The notes under the pieces were generated by a model, which saw nothing but the letters and a program-made list of their open reading frames with translations, made no database searches and was not told the origin of the DNA. From positions 1 through 64,000 of the forward strand of contig JAIORJ010000046.1 of the NCBI GenBank assembly GCA_021108185.1: a DNA stretch of 64,000 nucleotides, given 5' to 3'. Source of the stretch: Methanococcoides sp. Its GTDB lineage: Archaea > Halobacteriota > Methanosarcinia > Methanosarcinales > Methanosarcinaceae. Made by a program: the position numbers and the translations under genes. Of this stretch, positions 1-15,492 are shown one piece after another. How positions within the stretch are numbered: position 1 is the first letter of the stretch; each line of letters begins with the position of its first letter.

Positions 1-1
1 A

Positions 2-478
2 AAGATGCACTTGCGAAGCGAAGATTTTGAGCTCAATGAAATGATCGAAGATACGGCCAATATCCTTTCACCCCTTGCGAACAAAAAGAGAATAAACATA
101 TCCCACAGCATTGCTCATAATGTCAGCACCACAAATGCTGACAAGACCATGTTCAAACAGATAATGTATAATCTGGTAAGCAATGCCATAAAGTTCACAC
201 CTGAAGAGGGGAGCATTGACATCAACGCATGGTCAATGAACAAGAAACTTTATGTCAATGTCAAAGATACCGGAACCGGGATCTCAAAGGACCATATCGA
301 CGAAGTTTTCAAACCATTCATACAGGTCGGGAACTTTGCCACAAAAGAACAGGAAGGTACAGGTCTTGGCCTTGCTCTTGTGAAAAAGCTGGTCGAGTTG
401 CACGGTGGAGAAATATGGGTGGAAAGCGAGATGAACGAAGGCAGTACTTTCACCTTTACGATCCCTACCAGTAAATGA
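2..478 (+). CDS. sensor histidine kinase, C-terminal HATPase_c domain (5' end cut by window edge)
   Basis: ORF open to window start. Motifs 'DTGTGI' and 'GTGLGLALVKKLVELHGGEIWVES' match the G1/G2 boxes of histidine-kinase ATPase domains. Confidence 0.8.
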   Translation, partial: KMHLRSEDFELNEMIEDTANILSPLANKKRINISHSIAHNVSTTNADKTMFKQIMYNLVSNAIKFTPEEGSIDINAWSMNKKLYVNVKDTGTGISKDHIDEVFKPFIQVGNFATKEQEGTGLGLALVKKLVELHGGEIWVESEMNEGSTFTFTIPTSK

Positions 479-510
479 AAATAAAAAAGAAGAGAGCAGT
501 GGATAAGTGG

Positions 511-903
511 TCAGCCGTACAGTGACATGTCGTACTTAAGCGATGTGACATTAGCAGCACACACTGAACCGTTCTTCAGGAAATCCTCAATGTTCCTTTT
601 AAGTTCAGAAGGATTGGCAACACCTGCCATGCCACGTATCATTTTCCCAGCACACATGAATATAAAAGTGGGTGTTCCTTCCACACCATATCTTTCTGAG
701 ACCCATGGGTTAATTTCGGCATTGAGCTTGAAGAATTTACATGAATCTTTGTATGTTTCTGCAAACTCCCTGAAGTAAGGTTCTATCGCTTTGCAATGAG
801 AACATGTATTCAGATAGAACATTACCAGAACAGGTTTAGGCTCCTTTTCAACCATCTGTTCCCAATTACCGTCACCTACTTCCCCTACATAACTATTGTG
901 CAT
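511..903 (-). CDS. thioredoxin
   Basis: C-S-H-C active-site motif ('NTCSHCK') in a thioredoxin-like layout. Start chosen at the internal ATG at 903, preceded by the SD-like 'GAAGGGGG' with a 4-nt spacer. Confidence 0.75.
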   Translation of the reverse strand: MHNSYVGEVGDGNWEQMVEKEPKPVLVMFYLNTCSHCKAIEPYFREFAETYKDSCKFFKLNAEINPWVSERYGVEGTPTFIFMCAGKMIRGMAGVANPSELKRNIEDFLKNGSVCAANVTSLKYDMSLYG

Positions 904-966
904 GCTACCCCCTTCATTAATATCGTTTATGAAATAGATGATCACTTTTTTATTTGGTGAGGAACA

Positions 967-1395
967 TCACTTTTCGTCCCTATCAAATATTTCGACCGTA
1001 TTGTGATCATAATAAAGTTGCTTTTCAAAGATAGAAATATCCTTTGGTAGGATACCAGGACGTTCATCGGTCGTCATATAGAAATAACCTGCAATTTGGG
1101 TATAGTATTCCAAATAGCCTTTTATGACCTTGTTCAGAACTTCAAGTCTTCTTCCGAGTACCAAAATAAAAGGTAATTGCAAGAAAAAACAAATCATCAT
1201 TAAAAAACTATAGAGAGATAGAATGATCGCAACAGGTATACCATAGAATATCCTTACGAACAATTCCAAACGGGAAGCTTTTTTGTTCCATACAAAAAGC
1301 TCATTCATTCTTTTCTGATCCATTATTCTGACACCGAACCATTTTTTTAAATTATAAAATATATAAAGTGCGCTATATGTAAGAAACAAATGCAT
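967..1395 (-). CDS. hypothetical membrane protein
   Basis: 142-aa ORF with two or three hydrophobic helices; no recognisable motif. Confidence 0.4.
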   Translation of the reverse strand: MHLFLTYSALYIFYNLKKWFGVRIMDQKRMNELFVWNKKASRLELFVRIFYGIPVAIILSLYSFLMMICFFLQLPFILVLGRRLEVLNKVIKGYLEYYTQIAGYFYMTTDERPGILPKDISIFEKQLYYDHNTVEIFDRDEK

Positions 1396-1469
1396 AAGTT
1401 ATATGTTTTTTCAGTGAAAAATAAAAAAATAAGGGAAGATGTTCTGCAGATCATAACCTGTCTGCCCGT

Positions 1470-3269
1470 TCAATCCAGCTTTTCCCCACATTCTTCACAG
1501 AACTTTGCATCATCCTTTACTTCTTTTCCGCAAACTGGACATTTTCGGACTTCAGGTTCCGAACCTATATTAGAACGCTGGATAAGGCTATCAGTGATAT
1601 TGGTAGTGCTTATATTGTATTGTGCAGAACCCTCATCAACGAAAAGTTTGACATCGGTCCTCTTTTCGATCTCTTCCAGCATCTTATGATAGAAACCGGT
1701 AAGCGCGTCTTCTTTTTCAGCCCATGCCCTCAATATAAGGCGTGAACGGGTCTTGCCTACAACTTCAACATATGATGCATACTTTAAACCACTGACACCT
1801 TCAGCATAGAACCTTGCAACTCCCGTAAAAAGCCGAGGTGTTGATGTGATCTCTGGCTCTGTCATGTACATATTCATGTCCTTGAGGACCCGGGTAGCAA
1901 TATCGAACAGGTTCTCTGCAGGGATCTCAAGGTCTTTAGAATCCTCTTCTGCTGAAATGAGGGTGCTGACCACCGACCTCCAGGAAGGTTCATCGATCTG
2001 CCTGACCCGAAGTACCGGACAAACTATACTTACCATCTTGCCTTCAAGATCAACATGCTTACGCTTCTTCGTGTTATAGTCATAGTAGTCAATACCTGCA
2101 GAGATCTTACAGTCACCACATTCACCAGTCGGGCGGATCTCAAAGGTAACCGTCTTTCCTTCACCAGGTTCAAGCATAGACATCGTTTTCTCAGTCTCTT
2201 TCAACAGGAAAACATCAGGTACGAAAAGAGAGATCCTAATATCCCCTATCGGCTCAGAAGTGTTGTTCTCAACCTTTACCTTGTATTGGAGAAGAGCACC
2301 ACGGTAATTAAAAGCATATTTTACCACAATGGAACCGCTTTCCTTCAAAGGTGAAGATGGTGCTTTTCCTACACCGGCTCCAATGGGCTTGGATGGACCT
2401 TTTTCGGATTCAGTAACTGTTTCAGGAACAGGCTTAGGCTTGGATTTAGGCTTACTGGCAGTCTTTGAGGAACGATCACCCTTTGCTGATGGACTAGCAC
2501 CAAAACCGCCAGCTCCAGATCGTTCAGACTTCTTGTTCCGCCTTCGTGCCTTAATGATGCCCCTTAAGAATAACAACACAAAGATGAAGGAAAGAATAAG
2601 AATAACAACACCAGCACCATTGTCACTGTTGCCGGAATCATCAGTATATGTGGGATCTATCCTGTCAGTAGCAGTAGATGAAGACCTGCTAAAGTCAGAG
2701 GCAGAATAGTACTGGACCTCTCCTGATGGGACGTAGAAACTTGCCTCCATATCATCATATCCTGAAGATTCCAGGGTCACTGCATGATAACCAGGTTCCA
2801 GACCACTTAATTCTATCAGAGTGTACCCATCACTTGTGGCCTGATAATAGCTATCGAGATAGACATCATAACCATACGGGATGGAATAGAGCATTATGGC
2901 ACCCTGCGGGTAGTCTTTATAATATATATAAAGGTCGTCAATATTCATATAGTCAAAATATGATTCCGAATAGATGTCTACTATACCAAATTCCAGAGAA
3001 ATAAGGCCGTCGTCGTAATAGAAATAATCTCCCTCATAGTAGAAGGCATTGTGGACTTCATGGCCGTTCCATGTCATAGATATTTGAGCATAGTTATTGT
3101 ATGGATCAATATCGATTATATTGAGAACATATCCTTCTTCCAGCCAGAAGGAGTCCCCATCAGAGAAGGCAACCTCATAGTCCAGAGTTGATGAAGCACT
3201 GCCAGTAACGGATAATGTCAGGACTAAAAAGGATAATAACATCAGTATTTTTACGTGTTTTTCTATCAA
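1470..3269 (-). CDS. membrane protein with C-terminal zinc ribbon: signal peptide, Tyr/Asp-rich extracellular domain, one TM helix, low-complexity linker, cytoplasmic domain, C-terminal CPxCG...FCxxCG ribbon
   Basis: N-terminal 'MLLSFLVLTLSVTGSAS' signal peptide. TM helix 'GAGVVILILSFIFVLLFL' followed by RRRNKK. C-terminal 'CPVCGKEVKDDAKFCEECGEKLD'. Long ORF with coherent codon usage. Confidence 0.6.
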   Translation of the reverse strand: MIEKHVKILMLLSFLVLTLSVTGSASSTLDYEVAFSDGDSFWLEEGYVLNIIDIDPYNNYAQISMTWNGHEVHNAFYYEGDYFYYDDGLISLEFGIVDIYSESYFDYMNIDDLYIYYKDYPQGAIMLYSIPYGYDVYLDSYYQATSDGYTLIELSGLEPGYHAVTLESSGYDDMEASFYVPSGEVQYYSASDFSRSSSTATDRIDPTYTDDSGNSDNGAGVVILILSFIFVLLFLRGIIKARRRNKKSERSGAGGFGASPSAKGDRSSKTASKPKSKPKPVPETVTESEKGPSKPIGAGVGKAPSSPLKESGSIVVKYAFNYRGALLQYKVKVENNTSEPIGDIRISLFVPDVFLLKETEKTMSMLEPGEGKTVTFEIRPTGECGDCKISAGIDYYDYNTKKRKHVDLEGKMVSIVCPVLRVRQIDEPSWRSVVSTLISAEEDSKDLEIPAENLFDIATRVLKDMNMYMTEPEITSTPRLFTGVARFYAEGVSGLKYASYVEVVGKTRSRLILRAWAEKEDALTGFYHKMLEEIEKRTDVKLFVDEGSAQYNISTTNITDSLIQRSNIGSEPEVRKCPVCGKEVKDDAKFCEECGEKLD

Positions 3270-3410
3270 GATCGGACACCTGTGGAAACTATCATATTAT
3301 GTTAAGTTTGATCGCTATTAGTTCTTTCCGGGGCAAAGCTATACAGATAATACATATTGATTTTAAAGGAATATTTGTTTTAAAAGTGAATTTTTACCCC
3401 TACATTGAGT

Positions 3411-4697
3411 TCACTCAAGCTTTGTCCCGCACTGACCACAGAAATGTGCTTCTGCAGGGACTGTAGTACCACAACCAGGGCATTTCTTGACACCCGGAGT
3501 TCTGCGGGCCTGTGCAGCACCCATCATTTCAGCATCAAGTTCCTTCCTGCGATATGAATCATCGCGCTCACGGTCCTCAACATCCATCATGAAACGGACC
3601 TTGTCCTCTTTTGCAATGTTCTCAGCTTCTTTCATTTTGGCAAGGGCTTCAAGCTGCTCAGGAGACATATTCTGGAACTCCCTGCCCTGTGCAATGACCT
3701 TTGCAACATCTGAACCGCCTTTTTCCATAACATTACCCATATACTCCATGTCCCGGGAATGTTTGCGGTCGCTCATATCCTCATCAAGTTCAAGTTCAGC
3801 CCTTTTGGCTCCGGTTTTGGTCTGTTTCCAATCAGAAAAGGTCTCAATTGCCTGTTTAGCTTCGGCAGCATCGGTTTGGTTCTCGATCTGTGATATCCTT
3901 GACCTGTGGAGAGCATCCTTTTCCCCTTCTGTTCTGTAATGAGTTGCACTCACAGTTTCTTCTGCAAAGCCAGCCCTTGTGGATGCGACATTTATTCGGC
4001 TGTCACGGTCCAGATCACCCTCTTTTTCAAGAGCAGACATTTCTTTAAGCTCTTCGTTGACCTGGAATTCGCTGCGTTCCTTTCTTACAACAGCATAGTT
4101 GCCAAAGTCCCACTCGCAAGTATATTTTACAAGCTCGATCCCCCAAAGCAAAAGAGTGTCCTTAAGCTGCATTTCAAGCTCATTTTCCATCCTTAGCTGA
4201 AGATCACGGTTACCATAAAGGGATTCAATATCCTCCCCATGAACTTCCGGTTCAAGCACACGGGTTATTGTTTCACTTTCAAGGCGATCATAAATATCGA
4301 AGATAGAGAGATCTCTTTCCCCGTTCTTCTCCGGAACCGTATAGGAGAATATCATGTTGAAGAACTTTTTTGGATCGTTTATAGTGAACCTCAGGATACC
4401 CCCACACCCAACTTCCTGATCATCACGAGTCCATAGACCGGGAACCTCCCACCTCAGCTCCTTAAAGGAAGTGTCAATAAGAGCAACATCCACATCCTTA
4501 CGCAAGGTTCCTGGTTTTAGCAGGCCACCAACCATCATTTTTCCACTGTCTATGATGTCTTCAACTACACCATTCTTTATCATAACAGCTTTCTCATTAG
4601 GTGAGAGAGTAATAGATTTGCTGAAGAAACCTTTTACATTCTTCTTAGGGATAACACGTGCAATATCATCAAGTTCCTTCTTCCATTTGAACACCAT
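3411..4697 (-). CDS. SPFH/band-7-like protein with C-terminal zinc ribbon (resembles YdjI-type PspA partner)
   Basis: True start taken at the internal ATG at 4697, which follows a GGAGGT SD. N-terminal roughly 200 aa have an SPFH-like pattern. Central coiled-coil/charged region. C-terminal 'CPGCGTTVPAEAHFCGQCGTKLE' ribbon. Call rests on recollection of family features, not a database search. Confidence 0.5.
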   Translation of the reverse strand: MVFKWKKELDDIARVIPKKNVKGFFSKSITLSPNEKAVMIKNGVVEDIIDSGKMMVGGLLKPGTLRKDVDVALIDTSFKELRWEVPGLWTRDDQEVGCGGILRFTINDPKKFFNMIFSYTVPEKNGERDLSIFDIYDRLESETITRVLEPEVHGEDIESLYGNRDLQLRMENELEMQLKDTLLLWGIELVKYTCEWDFGNYAVVRKERSEFQVNEELKEMSALEKEGDLDRDSRINVASTRAGFAEETVSATHYRTEGEKDALHRSRISQIENQTDAAEAKQAIETFSDWKQTKTGAKRAELELDEDMSDRKHSRDMEYMGNVMEKGGSDVAKVIAQGREFQNMSPEQLEALAKMKEAENIAKEDKVRFMMDVEDRERDDSYRRKELDAEMMGAAQARRTPGVKKCPGCGTTVPAEAHFCGQCGTKLE

Positions 4698-4839
4698 AAT
4701 TCCAATACCTCCATCCTCAGGGAATATGCTATAGATTAACATTGAACAAATATTATATATAATGTTTTCCATTGTATACATAGGCATACATAATCGTTGA
4801 TCACTTTGATAGAACAGTAGAAGAGATATCAACAAAAAG

Positions 4840-4858
4840 AATAGATCTATTAATTAAA
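4840..4858 (+). promoter_or_regulatory. perfect palindromes AATAGATCTATT / TTAATTAA about 25-40 nt upstream of the RHH micro-ORF (candidate operator)
   Basis: AATAGATCTATT (4840-4851) is self-complementary and overlaps TTAATTAA. It sits in the AT-rich divergent promoter region with a TATATATA box at about 4755. Confidence 0.35.
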
Positions 4859-4881
4859 ATAACTAAAAAAGAGGAGATAAA

Positions 4882-5037
4882 ATGGGTCGCTCGTATCCTG
4901 TAAGTGCAAGGGTCTCAGAAGATAGTAAACAATATCTACAAGATCTTGTTGAAAAAGGAGTTGCTATAAACATGTCCGAAGCATTGAAAATATGTATAAG
5001 GTATGCCAAACAAAAGAAAATGGAGGAGGAGATATAA
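4882..5037 (+). CDS. small ribbon-helix-helix-like protein (51 aa), translationally coupled to the ESCRT-III-like gene
   Basis: Not in the ORF track (<60 aa). ATG at 4882 preceded by a GAGGAG SD (4871-4876). Sequence 'MGRSYPVSARVSEDSKQYLQDLVEKGVAINMSEALKICIRYA' fits the beta-strand-helix-helix pattern of CopG/Arc regulators. Stop TAA overlaps the next ATG (taATG at 5035-5039). Confidence 0.45.
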   Translation: MGRSYPVSARVSEDSKQYLQDLVEKGVAINMSEALKICIRYAKQKKMEEEI

Positions 5038-5606
5038 TGGGATTCGCTAATCCATTCAAAAAGGTATCACCTGATGAACTGAAAACAAAGCTATCGATGT
5101 CCGAACAGAGATTGACAGCACGTGAGAAAGAGCTTAACAAGAAGAGACAACAGGCACGTACACAAGCCAAGGATGCCCTTTCAGATGGGAATGACAGGGA
5201 TTTCAGGGTGGCATCTCGCAGATACTCGATGATAGAAGGCCAGGTCAACACCATTGGAAGTATGGTCGAAATGGCGCAGTCCATGACCGACGTAATGGAG
5301 ATGGAAAGTGGACTTAAAGAGGTTGTTGAGATCGGGGAAAACCTCGGAAAATGGCAAAAGCAACTTGGCTTTGATACAACAAAGCTCGAGGGAGCTATTA
5401 CCAATATCCGCACATCCATGGAGAAAGTGAATACTGCTACCAACCTCATGACATCCTCAATGGATGCAGCAATGAACGGTGGCACAGAGCTTAGTGATAT
5501 GCAGGACTCACTTCGATCAGAGCTATTAGCAGAACTTAGCACTGACATATCATCCAAAGATGAGCTATCAAAGAAGATCGATGAAGAGATGGCCGAGTCA
5601 GAGTGA
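5037..5606 (+). CDS. ESCRT-III / Snf7-family protein (CdvB/CHMP-like)
   Basis: Start at ATG 5037, preceded by GGAGGAGGA. 189 aa. Basic N-terminal helical hairpin, acidic C-terminal half, heptad pattern; aligns by eye with CHMP4/Snf7 (for example 'FRVASRRYSMIEGQVNTIGSMVEMAQSM' against Snf7 alpha2-alpha3). The antisense 218-aa ORF is low-complexity and rejected. Confidence 0.65.
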   Translation: MGFANPFKKVSPDELKTKLSMSEQRLTAREKELNKKRQQARTQAKDALSDGNDRDFRVASRRYSMIEGQVNTIGSMVEMAQSMTDVMEMESGLKEVVEIGENLGKWQKQLGFDTTKLEGAITNIRTSMEKVNTATNLMTSSMDAAMNGGTELSDMQDSLRSELLAELSTDISSKDELSKKIDEEMAESE

Positions 5607-5651
5607 TCTGGCAGGATCATACTGACCTACAGATACTGAGGGGGTGCAAAT

Positions 5652-6800
5652 CTGGGATCTGCAAGTTCACTGGCAGCACAGGCAAGAGGTTATGCAAAAG
5701 CTGCTAAGACATTGGAAGAAGAGAATGAAAAAGAGAGAGCAAGGGAACTATATCTAAGATCTGCAAAGCTCTACAACGAAGCTTCGAAACTCTCAACTGA
5801 CAAAACCGATAAGAATACACAGCGTGACCTTGCAGAACACCTTTTTGCAAAGGCACAGTCATTCAAAAGATCAGGCGTCCAGTATTCCGGCTCAGGCACG
5901 GGTACAAAGGAAGATACTGACGAATCATCATTATCAAAAGATGACCTTATAATGACAGAAACGCCCGATATAGGATTTTCGGACATTGGGGGCCTCGAGT
6001 CTGTTAAAGAGGATATCAGAAAGGCCATAATATACCCATTCACTCATAAGGAACTATACCAGATGTATGGCCAGAAAGCTGGCGAAGGAATACTCCTGCA
6101 CGGCCCCCCTGGTTGTGGAAAGACAATGATGGCAAAGGCCGCTGCAAAGGAATGTGGTGCAGATTTCATTAGTGTCAAAACAAGCAGCATTGTAAGCAAA
6201 TGGGTGGGTGCTTCTGAAAAGAACATAAAGAAGGTCTTTGACACTGCAAGGGAATGTGAGAAAGCCATCATCTTTTTTGACGAGATAGACTCCATAGGAG
6301 GCAGGCGAAGTGAAGCTGAAGACTACGCCAAAAGAGTGGTCAATGAACTGCTTGCCCAGATGGATGGAGTGGATACCGCCGATGATAACCTGCTGGTCCT
6401 TTCTGCGACCAACGAACCCTGGGCCATAGACCCGGCACTTCGCAGACCGGGACGCTTTAGTAAACTCATTTTCGTACCGGAACCGGACCTTCCTGCAAGA
6501 ATTGCCATCTTTAAGATCAACCTGAAGAAAAGACCGATCGATGATGATGTCAACGTAGAGAAACTGGCAGAGATGACCGGATCATATTCGGGAGCAGACA
6601 TTTCAGCCATTTGCAAGGAAGCCGCTGACATTCCGCTCGGAGAGGCAATTCGTGGTGCGGAACCCCGGAAAATAAAGATGGATGATTTCATCATAGTACT
6701 GGAGCAAAGGAAACCTTCGATCACCAGCTGGTATTCCGAAGCAAAACGTGAAATAAAGAAAAGTGGCGAAGAAGAAGTCTTTAGAGAGCTATTCCACTAA
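5652..6800 (+). CDS. Vps4-like AAA+ ATPase with N-terminal MIT domain (CdvC-like)
   Basis: Walker A 'GPPGCGKT', Walker B 'IIFFDEID', 'SSIVSKWVGASEK' (Vps4 'SDLVSKWLGESEK'), second region of homology, 'SGADI'. N-terminal three-helix MIT-like segment. Start ambiguous: the ORF track begins at TTG 5712, but the conserved helix 1 lies upstream with an in-frame CTG at 5652 placed 5 nt after a strong GAGGGGGTG SD. Confidence 0.7.
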   Translation: MGSASSLAAQARGYAKAAKTLEEENEKERARELYLRSAKLYNEASKLSTDKTDKNTQRDLAEHLFAKAQSFKRSGVQYSGSGTGTKEDTDESSLSKDDLIMTETPDIGFSDIGGLESVKEDIRKAIIYPFTHKELYQMYGQKAGEGILLHGPPGCGKTMMAKAAAKECGADFISVKTSSIVSKWVGASEKNIKKVFDTARECEKAIIFFDEIDSIGGRRSEAEDYAKRVVNELLAQMDGVDTADDNLLVLSATNEPWAIDPALRRPGRFSKLIFVPEPDLPARIAIFKINLKKRPIDDDVNVEKLAEMTGSYSGADISAICKEAADIPLGEAIRGAEPRKIKMDDFIIVLEQRKPSITSWYSEAKREIKKSGEEEVFRELFH

Positions 6801-6809
6801 TAACAGAGA

Positions 6810-8087
6810 GTGAACGAGATGGATCTGGAATCCCACCCCACAACATTGCAGGAAGAAAACAGGAAAACAGTGCATGAACTCCTGAAGAACACGCATTCAC
6901 GCATCGAAAGACTGATCCAGAAGACATATCAACAAAAGGATTCGGCCGCGACTTCACAACTTCGACAGCTTCGGACGAGGATAACAGGACTGATATCAGA
7001 AGCGGAAAAAAAAGAACTTGACTCCTTCGGAAGTCATACCGGCAACATTGATGATTTCTATGAGAACGAAGAAAGATTCGTAGAAACCCCTACGATGCTG
7101 CTTCAGGAAGTAGACAATGCCCTTGCTACCGATGAGAATGTCGATGTCTTTGCTATCAGTGACCTTGTGGACAAAATGGACATGGGATTTAGCCACAGGA
7201 TAGAGCTTACAAACAAGAACCTGAGCGAATACGAGAACAGGATCGGAAGTAAAAAGCAAGCTGAAAGAGAAGAAAAGGAAATAAGAGAGAAAGAGCAGAA
7301 AGAAGCTGAGGAAAAAGCCCCTGCAGAAGACAAAACTGAAATGTCTGAAACTTCCCCCTCCGAGATCAAAACCAGCTCAACTGATGATATTGAAGATGAA
7401 ACATCAGTTCCCTCTGACACCCAGGCCCATATTAAAAAAGACGAGCTTGATACTGAAACCCTCTCAAAACTTTACAGTTACATAAATATTCTGGAGGAAA
7501 AATTTGAGAAACAGCCTCCAGAGGTATCTTATGATGGGGAGTACATTGCAGACAAGCAATGGAAGGTCGAACTTTCAAAAAGAAGTGTGCGTGGCTCCAT
7601 AAAGGAAGGAAGGTTCAAAACTCCAATGCTTATCGTCGATAACTACTGGAAATCTGTAGACGACAAGAGAGATATCATCGAGATGATACAGGCAAAAGCA
7701 AGTACAATCGAACAAAACCAGTACATGAGCCTGTGTTTTATCAGCAGTTCATGGGATCAAAGCATAAAGGACTGGGTAAGGACATATTCACATCAGAGAC
7801 TGGGATTTTTCATATACGATCTATTGGAAGACGATCTTGTATACAATGAAAATGATGAAAATAACCGGAAATTTGCATTCTGGCATTCCACAAATGGAAC
7901 CCGGACTAAATTGGCACAGATCGTGGACCAACTCATTGAAGATGAAGAGTACTTTGACCTCAATGATGTTGTGGATCATTCCGGGCTTAACTTAAGAGGA
8001 GCTAAAAAATTCATAGATAGCCTCGTCAAGAAGAAAGCACTCATCGATGTTGGGCTGGACTCACCAAAATATACAAGATCAAAATAA
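6810..8087 (+). CDS. hypothetical acidic coiled-coil protein; last gene of the Snf7-Vps4 cluster
   Basis: 425 aa. N-terminal coiled-coil. Central Glu/Lys/Asp-rich low-complexity segment. C-terminal roughly 200-aa globular domain with possible D...(E/Q)xK and wHTH-like features (weak). Starts 10 nt after the Vps4-like stop. GTG at 6810 or ATG at 6819. Confidence 0.55.
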   Translation: MNEMDLESHPTTLQEENRKTVHELLKNTHSRIERLIQKTYQQKDSAATSQLRQLRTRITGLISEAEKKELDSFGSHTGNIDDFYENEERFVETPTMLLQEVDNALATDENVDVFAISDLVDKMDMGFSHRIELTNKNLSEYENRIGSKKQAEREEKEIREKEQKEAEEKAPAEDKTEMSETSPSEIKTSSTDDIEDETSVPSDTQAHIKKDELDTETLSKLYSYINILEEKFEKQPPEVSYDGEYIADKQWKVELSKRSVRGSIKEGRFKTPMLIVDNYWKSVDDKRDIIEMIQAKASTIEQNQYMSLCFISSSWDQSIKDWVRTYSHQRLGFFIYDLLEDDLVYNENDENNRKFAFWHSTNGTRTKLAQIVDQLIEDEEYFDLNDVVDHSGLNLRGAKKFIDSLVKKKALIDVGLDSPKYTRSK

Positions 8088-8143
8088 TACAAGGTAAATA
8101 AAATTAATTGAAAAAAAAGAATTAAAAAGGAGAGTGATGAATA

Positions 8144-8551
8144 TCACTCTGCTGGTGCTTCAACGTCTTCTGAACCGCCACCAAGGATATCTTCAATGGT
8201 CTTGTCAGAGTATCCTGTAACTTTGGTGTTGATCTGAGTAATGTCAGGAGCAATTTCGCTTCCACGAAGGAATTTCCTTCGGCGTACGCCTTTTGCTACT
8301 GGTGAATATCCTACACCCTTTGCAATGAGGATCTTTTGCCTCTTTGGACCTGGAAGGGTTGGGCTCATTACGAAACCACTGTTGTCGGTACCGCCTGTAA
8401 TGGTTAGTGTGTAACCATCCAGACCTACTGTTGCGCCATCTACTGTCTGACCAATAGATCTTCCAATGTACTGGTTTGCTTCAGCTCCAGTAATGTCGAA
8501 CTGGTAGGTCTTTGTTTTTGGATCTGAAACTACAATTTTAAAATCTGCCAT
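8144..8551 (-). CDS. rps6e: 30S ribosomal protein S6e
   Basis: Characteristic S6e sequence ('[17 protein letters not shown]', '[13 protein letters not shown]', '[11 protein letters not shown]'). Confidence 0.9.
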
Positions 8552-8641
8552 GATTTGCCTCCAATATGTTTGAATAGATTCGTATTTAAAGTTAGCTTAA
8601 GCCTGTATATGAATTACAGGTATTTATTTTGTATCCATCGA

Positions 8642-10417
8642 TCATTTCGCCCAGAATGGGTTATCCCTTCTTTTTATATCCAAGAAGGAGTCAAGTGCTT
8701 CTAATTCATCCGCCGAAAGTGAATCGTAAAGTTCGTGCTCAAGTATCTTAGCATGCCTTTCAGGTATGTTCGCATAGAGAACATCGCCTTCGTTTATCTG
8801 TCTGCCCACTGTAGGGCCATCGATAGACATCGCAACCTCCATGCCGATAGTAGCAACACTTACGTTCTCGCCCCGTGATTGCAAGCCTTTTACAATTCCC
8901 ACTACAGTACCATCGCCTGTCGTAACATCGACCTTCGTCTTGATGGTACCACCTATTACACGTACACCTACAACAGCAGGTTTGCTCTGTCTGAACACAC
9001 AGTCAGGCATAATAGTGAACATAGCGGGTTTGACAATTGTCTCGGAAACGGCCTTTTCGGATATAGCCCGCTGTTCCTTTACCCAATCCCTATAGTCATC
9101 TATCAAACGGTAGATGACATCGTTCATGAACACCTTGACGCCAGTGGATTGTATTTTTTCTTTGGCATCAGGAAGGATATTGACATTAAACCCTACAATA
9201 ACAGAATGGAACGGATCTTCGATAGCGAAAGCTTCCATAATGTCCCTGTTGGAAATATCACCCACATCTGCTTTGCGAATAGGGATATCCTCTTTTTTAA
9301 GTTCATTCACAAGAGCTTCAAGAGAGCCAATTGTATCGGCTTTGATAGTAATACCACTCTGATCGGTATCGATCTGGACATCTTCGACCTCATTACGCAC
9401 CTCTTCAACAACAGCATCCAGTGTTTCAGCAGTAGCTACCCTAACTGAACCTCCGGACAATGCACCATCGAGATGAGGAGCTGAGATCTTAACACCAACT
9501 GCAGCAGTAACCTTACTGACCTGCTTGAACTTATCTTCAACATTGATCTCTGAAAGAGCACGTGGTTTTAGGATAGCACGAACTTTTGTCTGTATAGGTT
9601 CACCCAAACATCCAACAACTATCGTATCACCTTTTTTCAGCACTCCATCATACAGGATAAGATCAAGGGTGGTACCAAGTCCACGCTCTTCTTTGACCTC
9701 CAGAACAGTACCCACACCGGGCCCTTCTGCATTATAATGAAGATTCGATTCAAGGAATCTCTGCGCCAGTCCCAACAGAACCATCAATAGATCAGGAATA
9801 CCTTCACCTGTGATCGCACTGATAGGAATAACACCGATATTATGCTGGAAATCGTTTACACGGTCATATCGATCAGAACTGAAACCATTGTTATACAGTT
9901 CACCCACGACCTCATAGAACTTGGTGTCAAGGCTTCCCCTTACGTGTTCGCTCTGCTTATTGTAAGACGTCATGAAAGGAGCACCTTTTTGAGGGTTCCA
10001 ACCATGGATCTTGTCGATCTTGTTCGCCACAACAACGAACGGGGTCTTATGCTGTTGCAAAATATTCAGGCTCTCGATCGTCTGTGGTTTAAAACCTTCA
10101 TTGATATCAACGATAACAACGGCAAGGTCTGCAAGAGCACCGCCACGACTCCTTAAAGTAGTGAACGCATGATGTCCAGGCGTATCAATGAAAAGAAGTC
10201 CAGGAACCATGAACTTGTCAAGTAGACCTGGATTCCCACATTTTTCCACAATAGCACTTATAGGAACTTCAGTTGCACCAATGTGCTGGGTGATAGCTCC
10301 AGCTTCTCCGGATACAACTGCACTTCCACGTATCATGTCAAGCAGTGAGGTCTTGCCGTGATCCACATGCCCCATAACACAAACGATAGGAGTTCGTAAG
10401 TTATCTTTTACAACCAT
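8642..10417 (-). CDS. infB: translation initiation factor aIF5B (IF-2 family GTPase)
   Basis: G1 'GHVDHGKTSLLD', 'DTPGH', 'NKID'. 591 aa. Conserved position after ndk. Confidence 0.95.
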   Translation of the reverse strand: MVVKDNLRTPIVCVMGHVDHGKTSLLDMIRGSAVVSGEAGAITQHIGATEVPISAIVEKCGNPGLLDKFMVPGLLFIDTPGHHAFTTLRSRGGALADLAVVIVDINEGFKPQTIESLNILQQHKTPFVVVANKIDKIHGWNPQKGAPFMTSYNKQSEHVRGSLDTKFYEVVGELYNNGFSSDRYDRVNDFQHNIGVIPISAITGEGIPDLLMVLLGLAQRFLESNLHYNAEGPGVGTVLEVKEERGLGTTLDLILYDGVLKKGDTIVVGCLGEPIQTKVRAILKPRALSEINVEDKFKQVSKVTAAVGVKISAPHLDGALSGGSVRVATAETLDAVVEEVRNEVEDVQIDTDQSGITIKADTIGSLEALVNELKKEDIPIRKADVGDISNRDIMEAFAIEDPFHSVIVGFNVNILPDAKEKIQSTGVKVFMNDVIYRLIDDYRDWVKEQRAISEKAVSETIVKPAMFTIMPDCVFRQSKPAVVGVRVIGGTIKTKVDVTTGDGTVVGIVKGLQSRGENVSVATIGMEVAMSIDGPTVGRQINEGDVLYANIPERHAKILEHELYDSLSADELEALDSFLDIKRRDNPFWAK

Positions 10418-10572
10418 GACACAACTCTCTCTGAAATCCTGTTGAATTCATTAATATTAAAAAAAACATTCAGGAGCGTTAGTACATAACATACTAACAA
10501 TGAAAGAGGACCGAATTATCGGCCTCTTATCCCTGAATGTTATTCGATCTTCAGATGTCTGATCCTTTCGAA

Positions 10573-11022
10573 TCACTCATACAACCATTCATCATCTGCT
10601 CGTGGATAGCCGGAGATCTCAGACTCTTCAAAGTGAAGAGCTATCTCACGCTCTGCTGATTCCGGAGCATCGGATGCATGGACAACATTTCTACCCATAT
10701 CGACTGCAAGATCGCCGCGGATAGTTCCAGGCAATGCATCGACAGGATTTGTTGCACCATTGATCGCACGCATGATCTTGATCGCGTTATTGCCTTCAAT
10801 GACCATCGAAACGGATGGTCCTGAAGTTACAAAGGATATGAGTGAACCGAAGAAAGGCCTCTCGGAGTGCTCTTTGTAGTGCTCCTTTGCAGCCGCTTCG
10901 GTCATCACATTCATCCTTAATGCTGCGATCTTAAGACCTTTTGTCTCGATTCTTGAGATGATCTCTCCAACAAGACAGCGCTGAACGCCATCTGGTTTGA
11001 CCATTACATAGGTTCGTTCCAT
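10573..11022 (-). CDS. ndk: nucleoside diphosphate kinase
   Basis: '[15 protein letters not shown]', 'NVVHASD' active-site His region. Start at ATG 11022 after a GGTGA SD. Confidence 0.95.
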
Positions 11023-11036
11023 CAGATTCACCAACA

Positions 11037-11225
11037 TTAGGCTTTCTTCAGGTAGATCCTACCCTGTTCTGTCCAGACAGTACGCCTTGGAAGTCTTCCA
11101 AGATCGAAGTTGCCCTTACACTTAGAAGAACAGAAATAATATGTGGATCCGTCCCTCTTTGCAAAAAGGAGACCTGTACCTGGCTCAAGCAACTCTCCGC
11201 AAAATGAACATTTTCTCTGTTCCAT
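11037..11225 (-). CDS. rpl24e: 50S ribosomal protein L24e
   Basis: 'CSFCG...YYFCSSKC' zinc-ribbon L24e signature. Start at ATG 11225 after an AGGTGA SD (the ORF track extends to GTG 11234). Confidence 0.9.
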
Positions 11226-11230
11226 TATCA

Positions 11231-11461
<231 letters not shown>

Positions 11462-11468
11462 TCAATGA

Positions 11469-11822
11469 TTATTTGAGTGCAGCGACTTTCTGTGCAACGT
11501 CTTCTACAATTTCGCTGCCCTTTCCTGCATCAGTGATTACAACAGCTGCACAGCCTACACCAATTCCACATGCTGCACCAAGTTCTTTCTGCTGTTTTAC
11601 AAAAATGTATGGTGTGTTCTTTTCTTCGCAAAGAGCTGGAATGTGAGCAACGATCTCGGATGGCTCAATATCAGCTGCGATTACTGCAAGCTTTGTGATG
11701 CCTCTTTCGATAGCTTTTGTTGCTTCGTTTGTACCTTTCTTGATCTTTCCAGTGTCTCTTGCGAGTTCGATTGCTTCAAGCGCTTTATCTGCTAATTCGT
11801 CAGGAACTTCAAATTTAACCAT
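11469..11822 (-). CDS. rpl7ae: 50S ribosomal protein L7Ae (K-turn binding)
   Basis: '[16 protein letters not shown]...AVIAADIEP' L7Ae/L30e signature. Confidence 0.93.
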
Positions 11823-12047
11823 ATTTATATCTCCTTCGAAACCGCCCTTATCTGCGGTCTGTCATTATTCATTGTAATTAACATCAGCAATGCACATTCA
11901 CTCAGAAATGAGTATATGTTGCATCAACCAAAGTATTTGGTATGAATCGCCACAGTCACATATATAGCTTGCGCCAAAATGGCTGATAGCTCACCAAAGA
12001 CATATGCAGAACAGAATATAAAAAAGAAAAACGAGGTGAGAACAAGC

Positions 12048-13038: not shown

Positions 13039-15492
13039 TCAGTCAATAAGTCTTGATGAAGCCATAATACAAGGCTGTCCCGACCATTCACCACAGACAA
13101 GCTTTGTTTCGACCCCGACCAGAAAACCACCCGCACCCACCATGACAGTCTCATAGACTAATTTATCCCCAACCCGGGCACTCGAAAGCATAGAATCAAC
13201 ATTATCCCACTCCCCATCAGGATGAAGCTCAAGGTAATGCATATCTGAAATATCCTCGTCTGAAAGTTTCAGACCTTCTACTAGCATCTTATTTGCATAG
13301 AGTACATATCCATCCATGTCCAGTACCACCAAGATCTCATCCACCATATCAACAAGGGACTGAAGGTCATTGTACTTCTTAGAATCATTTGAATCCGAGC
13401 GGATCTTTGAAATGACCACTCCGATCTGAGTAGCAATGGTCTCAAGGGAATTGCGTGCATCGGCAGGGATCTCATATTCGGAATGCGAGGATAAGCAAAG
13501 CGCTGCAATGACCTTCCCATCATGCATCACAGGGATTATACCGGTAGCATGCAAACCCTCGTACTGGTAGCTCTCACCAGTAGTAATAGCACTAAGCTCC
13601 GAATGATGTTTGTAAACCGGTTGCCCGGCCATCACAAGACGGTTCTGCACAGAATTCTTTCCAAACACCGAAATGTCCTTCACAAAACGCTCTGAAAGAC
13701 CTTTATGCGCCACAAGCCTCAGATCCCCAGTTGCTTCATCAAAAAGATATAATCTTCCAGAATCCACCGGCTCGACTTTTAAGCTGAATTCAAGCATCTG
13801 TTCAAAGGTTTCCTCAAGACTATGCGCAGAACTTAGAACACTATCAAGATCAAATTGCATATGCATAAAATCATCAGAATGTTTACGGTCAGTAACATCC
13901 ACAATGATACCCTGCATATGAGCGACATTCCCACCCTCATCGTGCTTGATGAACGTTCTTTCATCCACCCATCGTATATCGCCGAACTTGGTCAATACCC
14001 GATATTCCTGATTAAAATCCATAAAACCTGCATTTATCCTCTTAGAAAGCTCCTTTTGCACCCTATCAAGATCATAAGGATGTACAATATCAGCATACAC
14101 AAACCTTCCCGAAATAAAATCTTCCACCGAATAACCAAACTGAGTCACATTTTCTGAAACGAACTCAACCGGCCAATCAGGGTCAGCGCGCCAAAGGAAG
14201 ACAACCGCAGGACTATTCTTAATGACATCCCCCAGGATCTTCTGTATGTCAAGAGAACGGCGTAGTTCTTCATCCACCCCCCTATGAAGGAGAATACTCC
14301 ACATACCCTGCATCAGAAGTGTGACCTGACGCACATCGGAAAGATCATAATTATCAGTTTTATTGGCAAGCCCTACAAGAGCAACGATCTTGTCCCTTTC
14401 AAATATAGGAACGCTCAAGAATCGATCGATCTTCATATGCCCTTCAGGATATCCCCTTTTAGAAGGATTCTCCTCAGAATAATCATTGACTATGATCGGC
14501 AATCTCTGTTTCAGAGATTCACCCCAAAGCCCGACATCGACCACATGTGACTGAAGTTTCTTTTTGCCCAGAGAACATTCATTCGTAACGCCCTCGGACC
14601 ATGAATCTGTCGTGATGACACTTTCATCATCGCTCATGAATGCCAGATATCCGATCTTGCTATTAGTCAGTCTTACGACCTCATCCCTGGCAAAATCAAT
14701 GATTTCCTGAATGGAAGCATCCGTCATCTGGTACAAACGTAACAGCGCTTCAATACGTTTTTCTTCACTATGAAGTGCATTCTCTATCTTCTTCCTACCA
14801 GTGATATCAAGAATGATACCCTGAAGATATGTCACATTGCCCTGTAGATCATGTTGTATCTGAGTTCTTTCATCGACCCAGCGCACTTCCCCGGACTTTG
14901 TGAGGATACGATACTCCTGGAAGAAATCCGAATATCCGCCCTCAGTACACTTGGAAACACCTGCACGAACACGGTCAATATCATCAGGATGGACAATATC
15001 ACCATAGACCAGCTTCCCCGATATGAAATCCCCCACCGAATAACCGAACATATCAATGTTCTTCGATACGAACGCTACGGGCCAATCCTTCTCTGCCCTC
15101 CAGAGAAATACAACTACCGGACTGGAATTGATAACGGTCTGAAGCGCCTTGTTCATACCAAGAGCACCATCAAGCAAAGCAATATCATCCATCCTTTGCT
15201 CAGTAATATCCAGAATGATACCATGATAGAACTGGATAGAACCGGAATCATCACAATGAGCGGACGTCCTTTCATCGACCCATCGAATATCCCCGGCCTT
15301 TGTGAGAATACGATATCTGAGGTTGAAATTACGGTCTTTATCATCCATATGAAGAGACGTTTCAGATATTACATGATCAACATCATCGGGATGAATAATA
15401 TCAACATAACGAAACTTTCCGGAGATCAGATCTTTTGCATCATACCCGAATTGTGAGATGTTCTCGGAAACGAACTCCACGGGCCAACCCAT
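13039..15492 (-). CDS. multi-PAS/GAF sensor protein without a recognisable output domain
   Basis: Three PAS repeats with the 'SPVVVFLWRAExDWPVEFVS...IIHPDD...YRILTK.G.VRWV.ERT' signature and two GAF-like blocks ('LPIIVNDY...GYPEGH'). No HisKA/HATPase. ATG at 15492 lies inside the first PAS repeat and follows a GGAGGG SD. Confidence 0.7.
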   Translation of the reverse strand: MGWPVEFVSENISQFGYDAKDLISGKFRYVDIIHPDDVDHVISETSLHMDDKDRNFNLRYRILTKAGDIRWVDERTSAHCDDSGSIQFYHGIILDITEQRMDDIALLDGALGMNKALQTVINSSPVVVFLWRAEKDWPVAFVSKNIDMFGYSVGDFISGKLVYGDIVHPDDIDRVRAGVSKCTEGGYSDFFQEYRILTKSGEVRWVDERTQIQHDLQGNVTYLQGIILDITGRKKIENALHSEEKRIEALLRLYQMTDASIQEIIDFARDEVVRLTNSKIGYLAFMSDDESVITTDSWSEGVTNECSLGKKKLQSHVVDVGLWGESLKQRLPIIVNDYSEENPSKRGYPEGHMKIDRFLSVPIFERDKIVALVGLANKTDNYDLSDVRQVTLLMQGMWSILLHRGVDEELRRSLDIQKILGDVIKNSPAVVFLWRADPDWPVEFVSENVTQFGYSVEDFISGRFVYADIVHPYDLDRVQKELSKRINAGFMDFNQEYRVLTKFGDIRWVDERTFIKHDEGGNVAHMQGIIVDVTDRKHSDDFMHMQFDLDSVLSSAHSLEETFEQMLEFSLKVEPVDSGRLYLFDEATGDLRLVAHKGLSERFVKDISVFGKNSVQNRLVMAGQPVYKHHSELSAITTGESYQYEGLHATGIIPVMHDGKVIAALCLSSHSEYEIPADARNSLETIATQIGVVISKIRSDSNDSKKYNDLQSLVDMVDEILVVLDMDGYVLYANKMLVEGLKLSDEDISDMHYLELHPDGEWDNVDSMLSSARVGDKLVYETVMVGAGGFLVGVETKLVCGEWSGQPCIMASSRLID

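Follow-up and report, generated by a model that had tools for sequence, protein, structure and literature searches.

SPFH-zinc-ribbon and adaptin-appendage proteins encoded beside a Snf7/Vps4-like operon in Methanococcoides are probable accessory subunits of the Meth_adaptin ESCRT-III/Vps4 system

We analyzed a stretch of 64,000 nucleotides of genomic DNA from Methanococcoides sp. (GenBank assembly GCA_021108185.1, contig JAIORJ010000046.1, positions 1 to 64,000 of the forward strand), referred to in its full length as the window. [quoted passage not shown] An earlier reading of the sequence (the original prediction) had singled out this gene pair as counterparts of the partners of the ESCRT-III-superfamily protein PspA in Bacillus. 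Both open reading frames (ORFs) exist with the boundaries assigned to them at that time (Table 1). According to the ORF listing of the window, they are co-directional on the (-) strand, so that their description as divergently transcribed holds only relative to the (+) operon at 4882-8087, from which a spacer of 184 bp separates them. This operon comprises a 51-residue ORF, the Snf7-like gene, a gene for an AAA+ ATPase, and a gene for a 425-residue coiled-coil protein, and it is followed on its 3' side by the housekeeping genes S6e, aIF5B, NDK, and L24e. The 599-residue membrane protein is 100% identical to a database entry labeled 'MAG: Methanococcoides sp.'.

Table 1. Features of the locus and their positions in the window.
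Feature	Coordinates	Strand	Remarks
Membrane protein with adaptin appendage	1470..3269	-	599 aa, type-I, arCOG15284-type
Zinc ribbon of the membrane protein, VRKCPVCGKEVKDDAKFCEECGEKLD	1473..1550	-	Zn_Ribbon_1 32 bits
Cytoplasmic adaptin/COPI appendage-like region (Ig-like sandwich and alpha/beta platform)	1656..2330	-	
SPFH-coiled-coil-zinc-ribbon protein	3411..4697	-	428 aa, soluble, arCOG15283-type
Zinc ribbon of the SPFH protein, KCPGCGTTVPAEAHFCGQCGTKLE	3414..3491	-	Zn_Ribbon_1 26.9 bits
Proposed shared promoter and operator block	4748..4790	.	function inferred
51-aa small gene, probably a ribbon-helix-helix regulator	4882..5037	+	
Divergent ESCRT-III/Snf7-like protein	5037..5606	+	189 aa
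Single-domain AAA+ ATPase, Vps4/CdvC family (Meth_adaptin clade)	5712..6800	+	362 aa
Coiled-coil protein with acidic linker and C-terminal domain	6810..8087	+	425 aa

The SPFH protein belongs to the SPFH/Band 7 superfamily according to both a profile hidden Markov model and its fold. Pfam Band_7 (PF01145) matches residues 30-190 with 25.3 bits, which just exceeds its gathering score (23.6), and most homologs also carry PF01145. In an AlphaFold2 (AF2) model with a predicted local distance difference test score (pLDDT) of 73.5, an SPFH alpha/beta domain (residues 11-197) is followed by a helix of approximately 100 residues (200-298), further helices up to residue 393, and a small ribbon at residues 403-428, which corresponds to a Pfam match to Zn_Ribbon_1 at residues 405-427. 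Residues 200-400 are 40% charged. The SPFH-like N terminus, the charged coiled coil, and the C-terminal ribbon that had been read from the sequence earlier are thus borne out. No TM (transmembrane) or other hydrophobic segment was found in the protein, so that it has no N-terminal anchor or hairpin, a feature that is typical, though not universal, in the SPFH family. Its N terminus is basic, with 8 K/R among the first 30 residues. The closest structures retrieved from the PDB with Foldseek (E 1e-8 to 1e-6) are those of the cage-forming proteins stomatin, HflK/C, erlin1/2, flotillin1/2, prohibitin, and QmcA, with a probability of 1.0 for stomatin and HflK/C. The window protein shares with them the SPFH domain and the long helices that follow it, over 220-410 aligned columns, but it lacks their N-terminal TM segment or hairpin, has the ribbon as an additional C-terminal element, and is only 12-18% identical in sequence.

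Among homologs of the SPFH protein, the ribbon cysteines C406, C409, C420, and C423 are invariant. The start MVFKWK is kept in 14 homologs, and MxFKW together with the four cysteines is kept at overall identities of 47-94%; the proteins of M. alaskense and M. methylutens are 94% and 89% identical, respectively, to that of the window. A profile search of 1.84 billion representatives yielded one representative at 774 bits, a sharp drop in score after it, and 202 matches below 1e-10, which identifies a compact family. Distant full-length relatives retain both Band_7 and a C-terminal ribbon. The second-best representative of this family, P0225 (792 amino acids, 445 bits), is fused to a TIR domain at its C terminus, a hint of a variant linked to defence or signaling.

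The membrane protein has the layout expected from the original prediction, namely, a signal peptide, a Tyr/Asp-rich ectodomain, a single TM helix, a Pro/Lys/Ser-rich linker, a cytoplasmic domain, and a C-terminal ribbon. The hydrophobic N terminus or signal peptide spans residues 1-27, and the TM helix, at approximately 219-243, is followed by RRRNKK. The ectodomain (Y 16%, D 12%) is modeled by AF2 as two beta-sandwiches at 33-117 and 123-189 (pLDDT 72.5), the second of which corresponds to a Pfam PEGA match at residues 124-186. For the first sandwich, there is a weak similarity to S-layer proteins (Pfam E 3.8e-4; Foldseek 3u2g 4e-4). On the cytoplasmic side, a disordered linker at 247-311 (S 20%, K 17%, G 14%, P 14%) leads to an Ig-like sandwich (314-422), an alpha/beta platform (427-538), a second linker, and the ribbon at 574-599 (Zn_Ribbon_1 at 576-598 in Pfam), of which C577, C580, C591, and C594 are invariant in 37 homologs.

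In the predicted structure, the cytoplasmic region is a bipartite adaptin/COPI appendage composed of the Ig-like part and the platform. Foldseek matched it over approximately 240 columns to COPI (9qpq_H, 2.5e-9), gamma-COP, and the alpha and beta2 ears of AP2. By comparison with the ears of AP2 alpha/beta2, AP4 beta, and COPI beta/gamma, the window appendage has neither a HEAT-repeat trunk nor a heterotetramer, and it is instead tethered to a TM helix through the disordered linker and followed by a zinc ribbon. Across 178 homologs of the membrane protein, the cytoplasmic half with appendage and ribbon is conserved (60-69% identity), and the ectodomain is exchanged among PEGA, CarboxypepD_reg, PQQ beta-propeller, NHL/SMP-30, S-layer-like (PF07752), and DUF2846 domains. 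Three cysteines in the Ig-like part of the appendage, C384, C387, and C417 (PTGECGDC...VCP), are also invariant and may form a metal site. To our knowledge, a cysteine trio of this kind is not known from eukaryotic appendages.

Conservation of the gene neighborhood was examined in a set containing one genome per species, in which 38 loci were found in Methanococcoides, Methanolobus, Methanomethylovorans, Methanoperedens, and other Methanosarcinales. In every one of the 31 genome loci that extend upstream of SPFH, the neighbor on that side is a divergently oriented Snf7-like gene, and about 35 loci have the membrane protein gene downstream of SPFH. In Methanoperedens-type loci, the genes for the Vps4-like and 425-residue proteins are present but relocated, and the SPFH/Snf7-like adjacency stays. 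A reciprocal search of metagenomes seeded with the Snf7-like protein placed SPFH upstream in 19 of the 22 loci that had sufficient sequence. Conservation of this adjacency across Methanosarcinaceae, Methanoperedens, and other Methanosarcinales answers the concern raised with the original prediction that the genes might be neighbors by chance. An origin of the module as a mobile element or from a defence island was rejected because, in many genera, the module is flanked by conserved housekeeping genes (S6e, aIF5B, NDK).

Some individual loci differ in their content. One Methanoperedens locus (L026) has no Vps4-like AAA gene within 10 kb of the module; downstream of the module, it encodes a 774-residue protein with an MIT domain and no detected AAA domain (L026:16885-19209), followed by a second, different SPFH protein (L026:19212-20228). 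Among loci devoid of SPFH, L054:3341-6992 combines a Snf7-like gene with two AAA ATPases, one of them with a clear Vps4_C domain, and in L066:4368-7564, a 49%-identical Snf7-like gene lies two genes downstream of a tubulin/FtsZ-like ORF.

The zinc ribbons themselves are confined to the module. Within the window, the two proteins are the only real-looking ORFs ending in a CPxCG...FCxxCG-type ribbon. Extending the count to 57 related loci, we found 113 ribbon-ended ORFs inside the module and 0 in 364 kb of flanking sequence; given that these loci are mutually related, these numbers do not represent independent events. Most of the related loci hold two to four such ORFs; examples of individual ORFs are L009:6198-7943 (-) and L026:11275-12816 and 14760-15269 (+). 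In Methanolobus-type loci, ribbon-ended appendage paralogs are inserted within the Snf7/Vps4 operon. As a consequence of this restriction, we regard the shared ribbon as a mark of the module and not as background. Concerted evolution of the two ribbons was considered and discarded: ribbons from the same genome are not more alike, and ribbon signatures are specific to each class of protein and orthologous from genome to genome.

The first ORF of the (+) operon encodes 51 residues, MGRSYPVSARVSEDSKQYLQDLVEKGVAINMSEALKICIRYAKQKKMEEEI, and its stop codon overlaps the start codon of the Snf7-like gene (ATAATG), which places the Snf7-like start at 5037 and not at 4992. The ORF is conserved with 69-100% identity in every one of the 31 genome loci and in the 26 metagenome loci that reach this position, and its variable alignment columns are distributed over the three codon positions as 25/16/50, with strong variation at the third. 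Judged by these sequence comparisons, it is a real gene, translationally coupled to the Snf7-like gene. Its product is probably a ribbon-helix-helix (RHH) regulator. This prediction is based on weak but consistent NCBIfam matches to the AbmR C-terminal region (14/14), RelB/DinJ (7/14), ParD (5/14), and CdrS (5/14), and some databases name the protein as an Arc/MetJ or CopG family member. No RHH match was obtained in Pfam, a profile search of the PDB gave insignificant NF-YB matches only, and an hhalign comparison with Arc, Mnt, and CopG gave a probability of 0.13. In haloarchaea, cdrS is co-transcribed with ftsZ2. The arrangement found here resembles CdrS-FtsZ2 in that a gene for a very small, putatively RHH-type protein lies immediately upstream of a membrane-remodeling or cytoskeletal gene, but the similarity of the 51-residue protein is weak (best E 0.011), and the downstream gene is ESCRT-III-like and not FtsZ.

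In the spacer between the two transcription units, one block, AAnTATTATATATAnTGTTTTCCATTGTATACA, is kept essentially unchanged in 32/32 loci, whereas the rest of the spacer varies. In the window, the block comprises a TATA box (4753-4761) and, after it, TGTTTTCCATTGTATACA (4763-4780), which contains the palindromic core TGTATACA; in L008, L024, and L036, the palindrome is extended to a perfect one of 16 bp, CCATTGTATACAATGG. We consider it likely from these sequence features that the block is a putative shared promoter and operator for the two divergent operons. The motif CCATTGTATACA(A/T)(T/A)GG within the block suggests itself as a putative target of the 51-residue protein. The operator-like sequence of the block has one exact copy in the window. 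A copy with three mismatches at 7838-7855 (-), which contains CATTGTATACA, was rejected, given that it lies inside the coding region of the 425-residue protein and at the edge of chance expectation (1/100 shuffles). A bidirectional promoter common to both operons may be autoregulated, as suggested by the RHH-like gene together with the invariant palindrome, which lies just downstream of the TATA box.

The Snf7-like protein aligns over nearly its full length with Pfam Snf7, at 15 bits against a threshold of 27.3. Snf7 is the top Pfam family in 11 of 13 orthologs (best E 5.5e-4), and the protein is 66-85% identical across the order. Its N terminus, MG(F/L)xNPFKK (window 5037-5063), is kept in Methanosarcinaceae but not in Methanoperedens-type orthologs. 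In eukaryotes, endocytic adaptor modules bind NPF/DPF-type motifs as ligands, which we mention as a lead only. The ATPase is clearly recognized by Pfam AAA (149 bits) together with AAA_lid_3. It also matches NCBIfam CdvC over residues 6-339 with 233 bits, under the cut-off of that model, and Vps4_C at a sub-threshold level (E 0.019). In the available rows of Table S2 of PMC10936438, an ortholog of the Snf7-like protein is assigned to arCOG00454 and an ortholog of the ATPase to arCOG01307.

The 425-residue protein encoded at the end of the operon has no Pfam match, including none to a winged-helix domain. Its gene is part of the module in nearly all loci, with 25-43% identity beyond the closest relatives, and in Methanoperedens-type loci, it sits downstream of the membrane protein gene. 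The window gene is syntenic with that for WP_048205006, and the part of Table S2 available (PMC10936438) gives the annotation 'coiled-coil fused to wHTH' for the ortholog.

The system has been described before. Makarova et al. (2024; mBio 15:e00335-24; PMC10936438) defined a 'Meth_adaptin' clade of Vps4 with Methanosalsum zhilinae as the representative locus. According to these authors, Meth_adaptin loci encode ESCRT-III, two adaptin-appendage proteins, of which one has a zinc ribbon and the other is linked through a TM segment to GOLD, and an SPFH protein that has both a coiled coil and a zinc ribbon. [quoted passage not shown] For the locus of M. methylutens MM1, the rows of their Table S2 that were available list S6e, a coiled-coil-wHTH protein, Vps4, ESCRT-III, a divergent SPFH protein (WP_048205008, arCOG15283, 428 amino acids), and an adaptin-appendage protein (WP_048205009, arCOG15284, about 600 amino acids). 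As far as these rows extend, gene set and gene order in the window are the same. The orthologous M. methylutens locus has been annotated gene by gene in PMC10936438. The system, the gene pair, and the parallel to YdjI/PspA were thus already published in 2024, and our finding is a correct rediscovery. The 51-residue gene and the promoter block are not among the Table S2 rows between ESCRT-III and SPFH in the part available.

Compared with the M. zhilinae locus, the window encodes one appendage protein instead of two and no ProX. An ORF for a ProX-like substrate-binding protein is absent from window positions 1-12000, and neither the ORF listing nor Pfam revealed a solenoid protein among the ORFs of the locus. 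ProX, which appears to be optional, is also absent from the available M. methylutens rows of Table S2 (PMC10936438). The architectures differ as well. The window protein is arranged as ectodomain, TM helix, appendage, and zinc ribbon, with PEGA-type sandwiches, whereas the M. zhilinae neighbor is described as consisting of an appendage (1-220), a TM segment, and a GOLD domain (389-546). Meth_adaptin is labeled 'Methanobacteriales' in PMC10936438; M. zhilinae and all loci found here belong to the Methanosarcinales.

Taken together, we consider it probable that the two genes encode accessory subunits of the euryarchaeal Meth_adaptin ESCRT-III/Vps4 system in Methanosarcinales. Starting from the observed domain identities, topology, gene linkage, and promoter block conservation, we infer physical interactions, oligomerization, a role of the ribbons, and a cellular outcome as follows. 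The 599-residue type-I protein would act as a membrane receptor and anchor, the exchangeable ectodomain of which faces the envelope and selects a site or cargo, and its appendage platform, carried on a flexible linker, could serve as a cytoplasmic protein-interaction hub. The TM-less SPFH protein might reach the inner leaflet by means of its basic N terminus, a membrane partner, or both, and could oligomerize through its long coiled coil into a stomatin- or HflK/C-like ring or cage that marks a membrane patch. The patch marked by SPFH would nucleate a polymer of the Snf7-like protein, and remodeling of this polymer by the Vps4-like ATPase would lead to budding or scission of the patch, by which either a vesicle is set free or an area that is marked or damaged is eliminated. 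The flexibly tethered C-terminal ribbons could serve to attach these accessory proteins to a partner or surface common to them, and one compact promoter region would serve both operons, probably under the control of the 51-residue RHH-like protein. A more specific version holds that the ribbon is a common address tag that docks two to four accessory proteins onto the core or the membrane and, in addition, that the module is inducible through the 51-residue protein bound to the palindrome. In this version, the accessory proteins would be the SPFH scaffold and appendage receptors with swapped ectodomains, docking at one site of the Snf7-like/Vps4-like core or at the membrane. We regard this combined proposal as doubtful.

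Several observations weigh against this reading. The original prediction had spoken of a bona fide Snf7/Vps4 pair, which is a generous name for it. In favor of this are the predominance of Snf7 among the Pfam families of the orthologs and the clear AAA domain, but the Snf7-like protein remains below the Pfam threshold in every ortholog, the Vps4_C match is sub-threshold too, and Pfam did not detect an MIT domain in the ATPase. Sequence and profile searches of the PDB with the Snf7-like protein returned no ESCRT-III, and the AAA core of the ATPase is at least as close to Cdc48 (D2) as it is to Vps4. The assignment of both the Snf7-like protein and the ATPase leans largely on the published phylogeny. 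Moreover, three more divergent Snf7-like loci (L054, L066, and L069) have no SPFH gene nearby, and SPFH is therefore not obligatory for every Snf7-like relative. Confidence in the structure models, which were derived from shallow alignments, is moderate (pLDDT about 73), and literature searches gave no experimental work on the system in Methanosarcinales and no experimental data on it from any other organism.

The main functional alternative is that the module constitutes a Psp-like inducible system for envelope stress or repair, in which the SPFH protein and the receptor sense or mark damage and the Snf7-like protein seals the membrane without forming vesicles or sorting cargo. Such a role would parallel that of PspA-YdjI, and membrane repair is considered the ancestral role of the ESCRT-III superfamily (PMC10936438). 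A dedicated small regulator together with an operator-like palindrome, both predicted, would also be in agreement with switchable expression. Conversely, the appendage hubs, the exchangeable ectodomains (GOLD in M. zhilinae), and a Vps4-type ATPase fit better with the selection of cargo or a membrane patch and its scission. Although we think repair without scission rather unlikely, the present evidence does not separate sealing from scission.

A further question is whether the pairing of an SPFH-zinc-ribbon protein with ESCRT-III described here and the pairing of YdjI with PspA in Firmicutes derive from one ancestral membrane-tethering module, which would make the two genes true counterparts of ydjGHI. 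YdjI, an SPFH protein that lacks a TM segment and carries a zinc finger at its C terminus, depends on YdjG/YdjH to arrive at the membrane, and PspA foci in turn require YdjI (PMC8581546; PMC11237479; 10.64898/2026.02.06.704340). The window locus resembles PspA-YdjG-YdjH-YdjI (SamGHI) of Bacillus subtilis in that genes for an ESCRT-III-superfamily protein and for membrane proteins accompany the gene for a soluble SPFH protein that has a zinc finger at its C terminus. The common architecture of a TM-less SPFH domain, a low-complexity or coiled region, and a C-terminal ribbon beside an ESCRT-III-superfamily gene and membrane partners (PMC8581546; PMC11237479) would be expected under common descent, as would the retention of SPFH and ribbon by the distant relatives, and the same idea was raised in PMC10936438.

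There are also clear differences. The SPFH partners in the window are a Snf7-like protein and a Vps4-type ATPase, and the partner in Bacillus is PspA; the genes are arranged in divergent operons in the window and in one sigma-W operon in Bacillus. Band_7_1 (PF13421), the YdjI-type family, gave no match for the window SPFH protein at E<=1, in a search conducted without YdjI as a positive control, and none for 10 distant SPFH relatives at E<=0.001. YdjH is a TPM domain protein, and YdjG has two N-terminal zinc ribbons, an NTF2-like domain, and a TM segment (PMC11237479). The window membrane protein shares only a ribbon and a TM helix with YdjG and nothing with YdjH, and with its PEGA and Ig-like domains, adaptin appendage, and single C-terminal ribbon, it is not the analog of YdjG/YdjH that it had been taken for. 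Finally, ribbons of the PF13240 type are short and fused to many types of proteins, which makes convergence plausible. The likeness to YdjI is thus upheld for the architecture and not for the family: by sequence, membership in the YdjI family and common descent are without support here. In the absence of a Band_7_1 match and with an unlike membrane partner, shared descent is not established, and independent recruitment of SPFH-zinc-ribbon proteins is equally compatible with the data. We consider descent from one tethering module improbable. Of the conserved tethering module that had been postulated, the functional link to the ESCRT genes is retained on the basis of linkage, but not the shared descent with PspA systems.

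It is very improbable that the two genes form an independent scaffold pair of the stomatin/NfeD-like or HflK/C-like kind that is functionally unlinked to the ESCRT genes and adjacent to them for historical reasons: SPFH proteins do commonly work with a neighboring membrane partner, the nearest structures are generic SPFH cages, and the two genes lie on the strand opposite the ESCRT operon, but the adjacency is kept across families with approximately 50% protein identity despite other rearrangements and insertions, the promoter block is shared and invariant, and Methanolobus-type loci carry ribbon-ended appendage paralogs inside the Snf7/Vps4 operon itself.

In conclusion, the pair of genes repeats what comparative genomics has already described, and the value of finding it is therefore one of confirmation. 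The 51-residue regulator gene, the operator-like block, the confinement of the ribbons to the module, and the swapping of ectodomains are additions made here that provide handles for first experiments. The system is among the more complex ESCRT systems of non-Asgard archaea, and it was proposed by Makarova et al. to resemble the ancestral archaeal ESCRT machinery (PMC10936438). It links ESCRT-III/Vps4, an SPFH protein, and an adaptin appendage, all known from eukaryotic membrane traffic, in ordinary methanogens.

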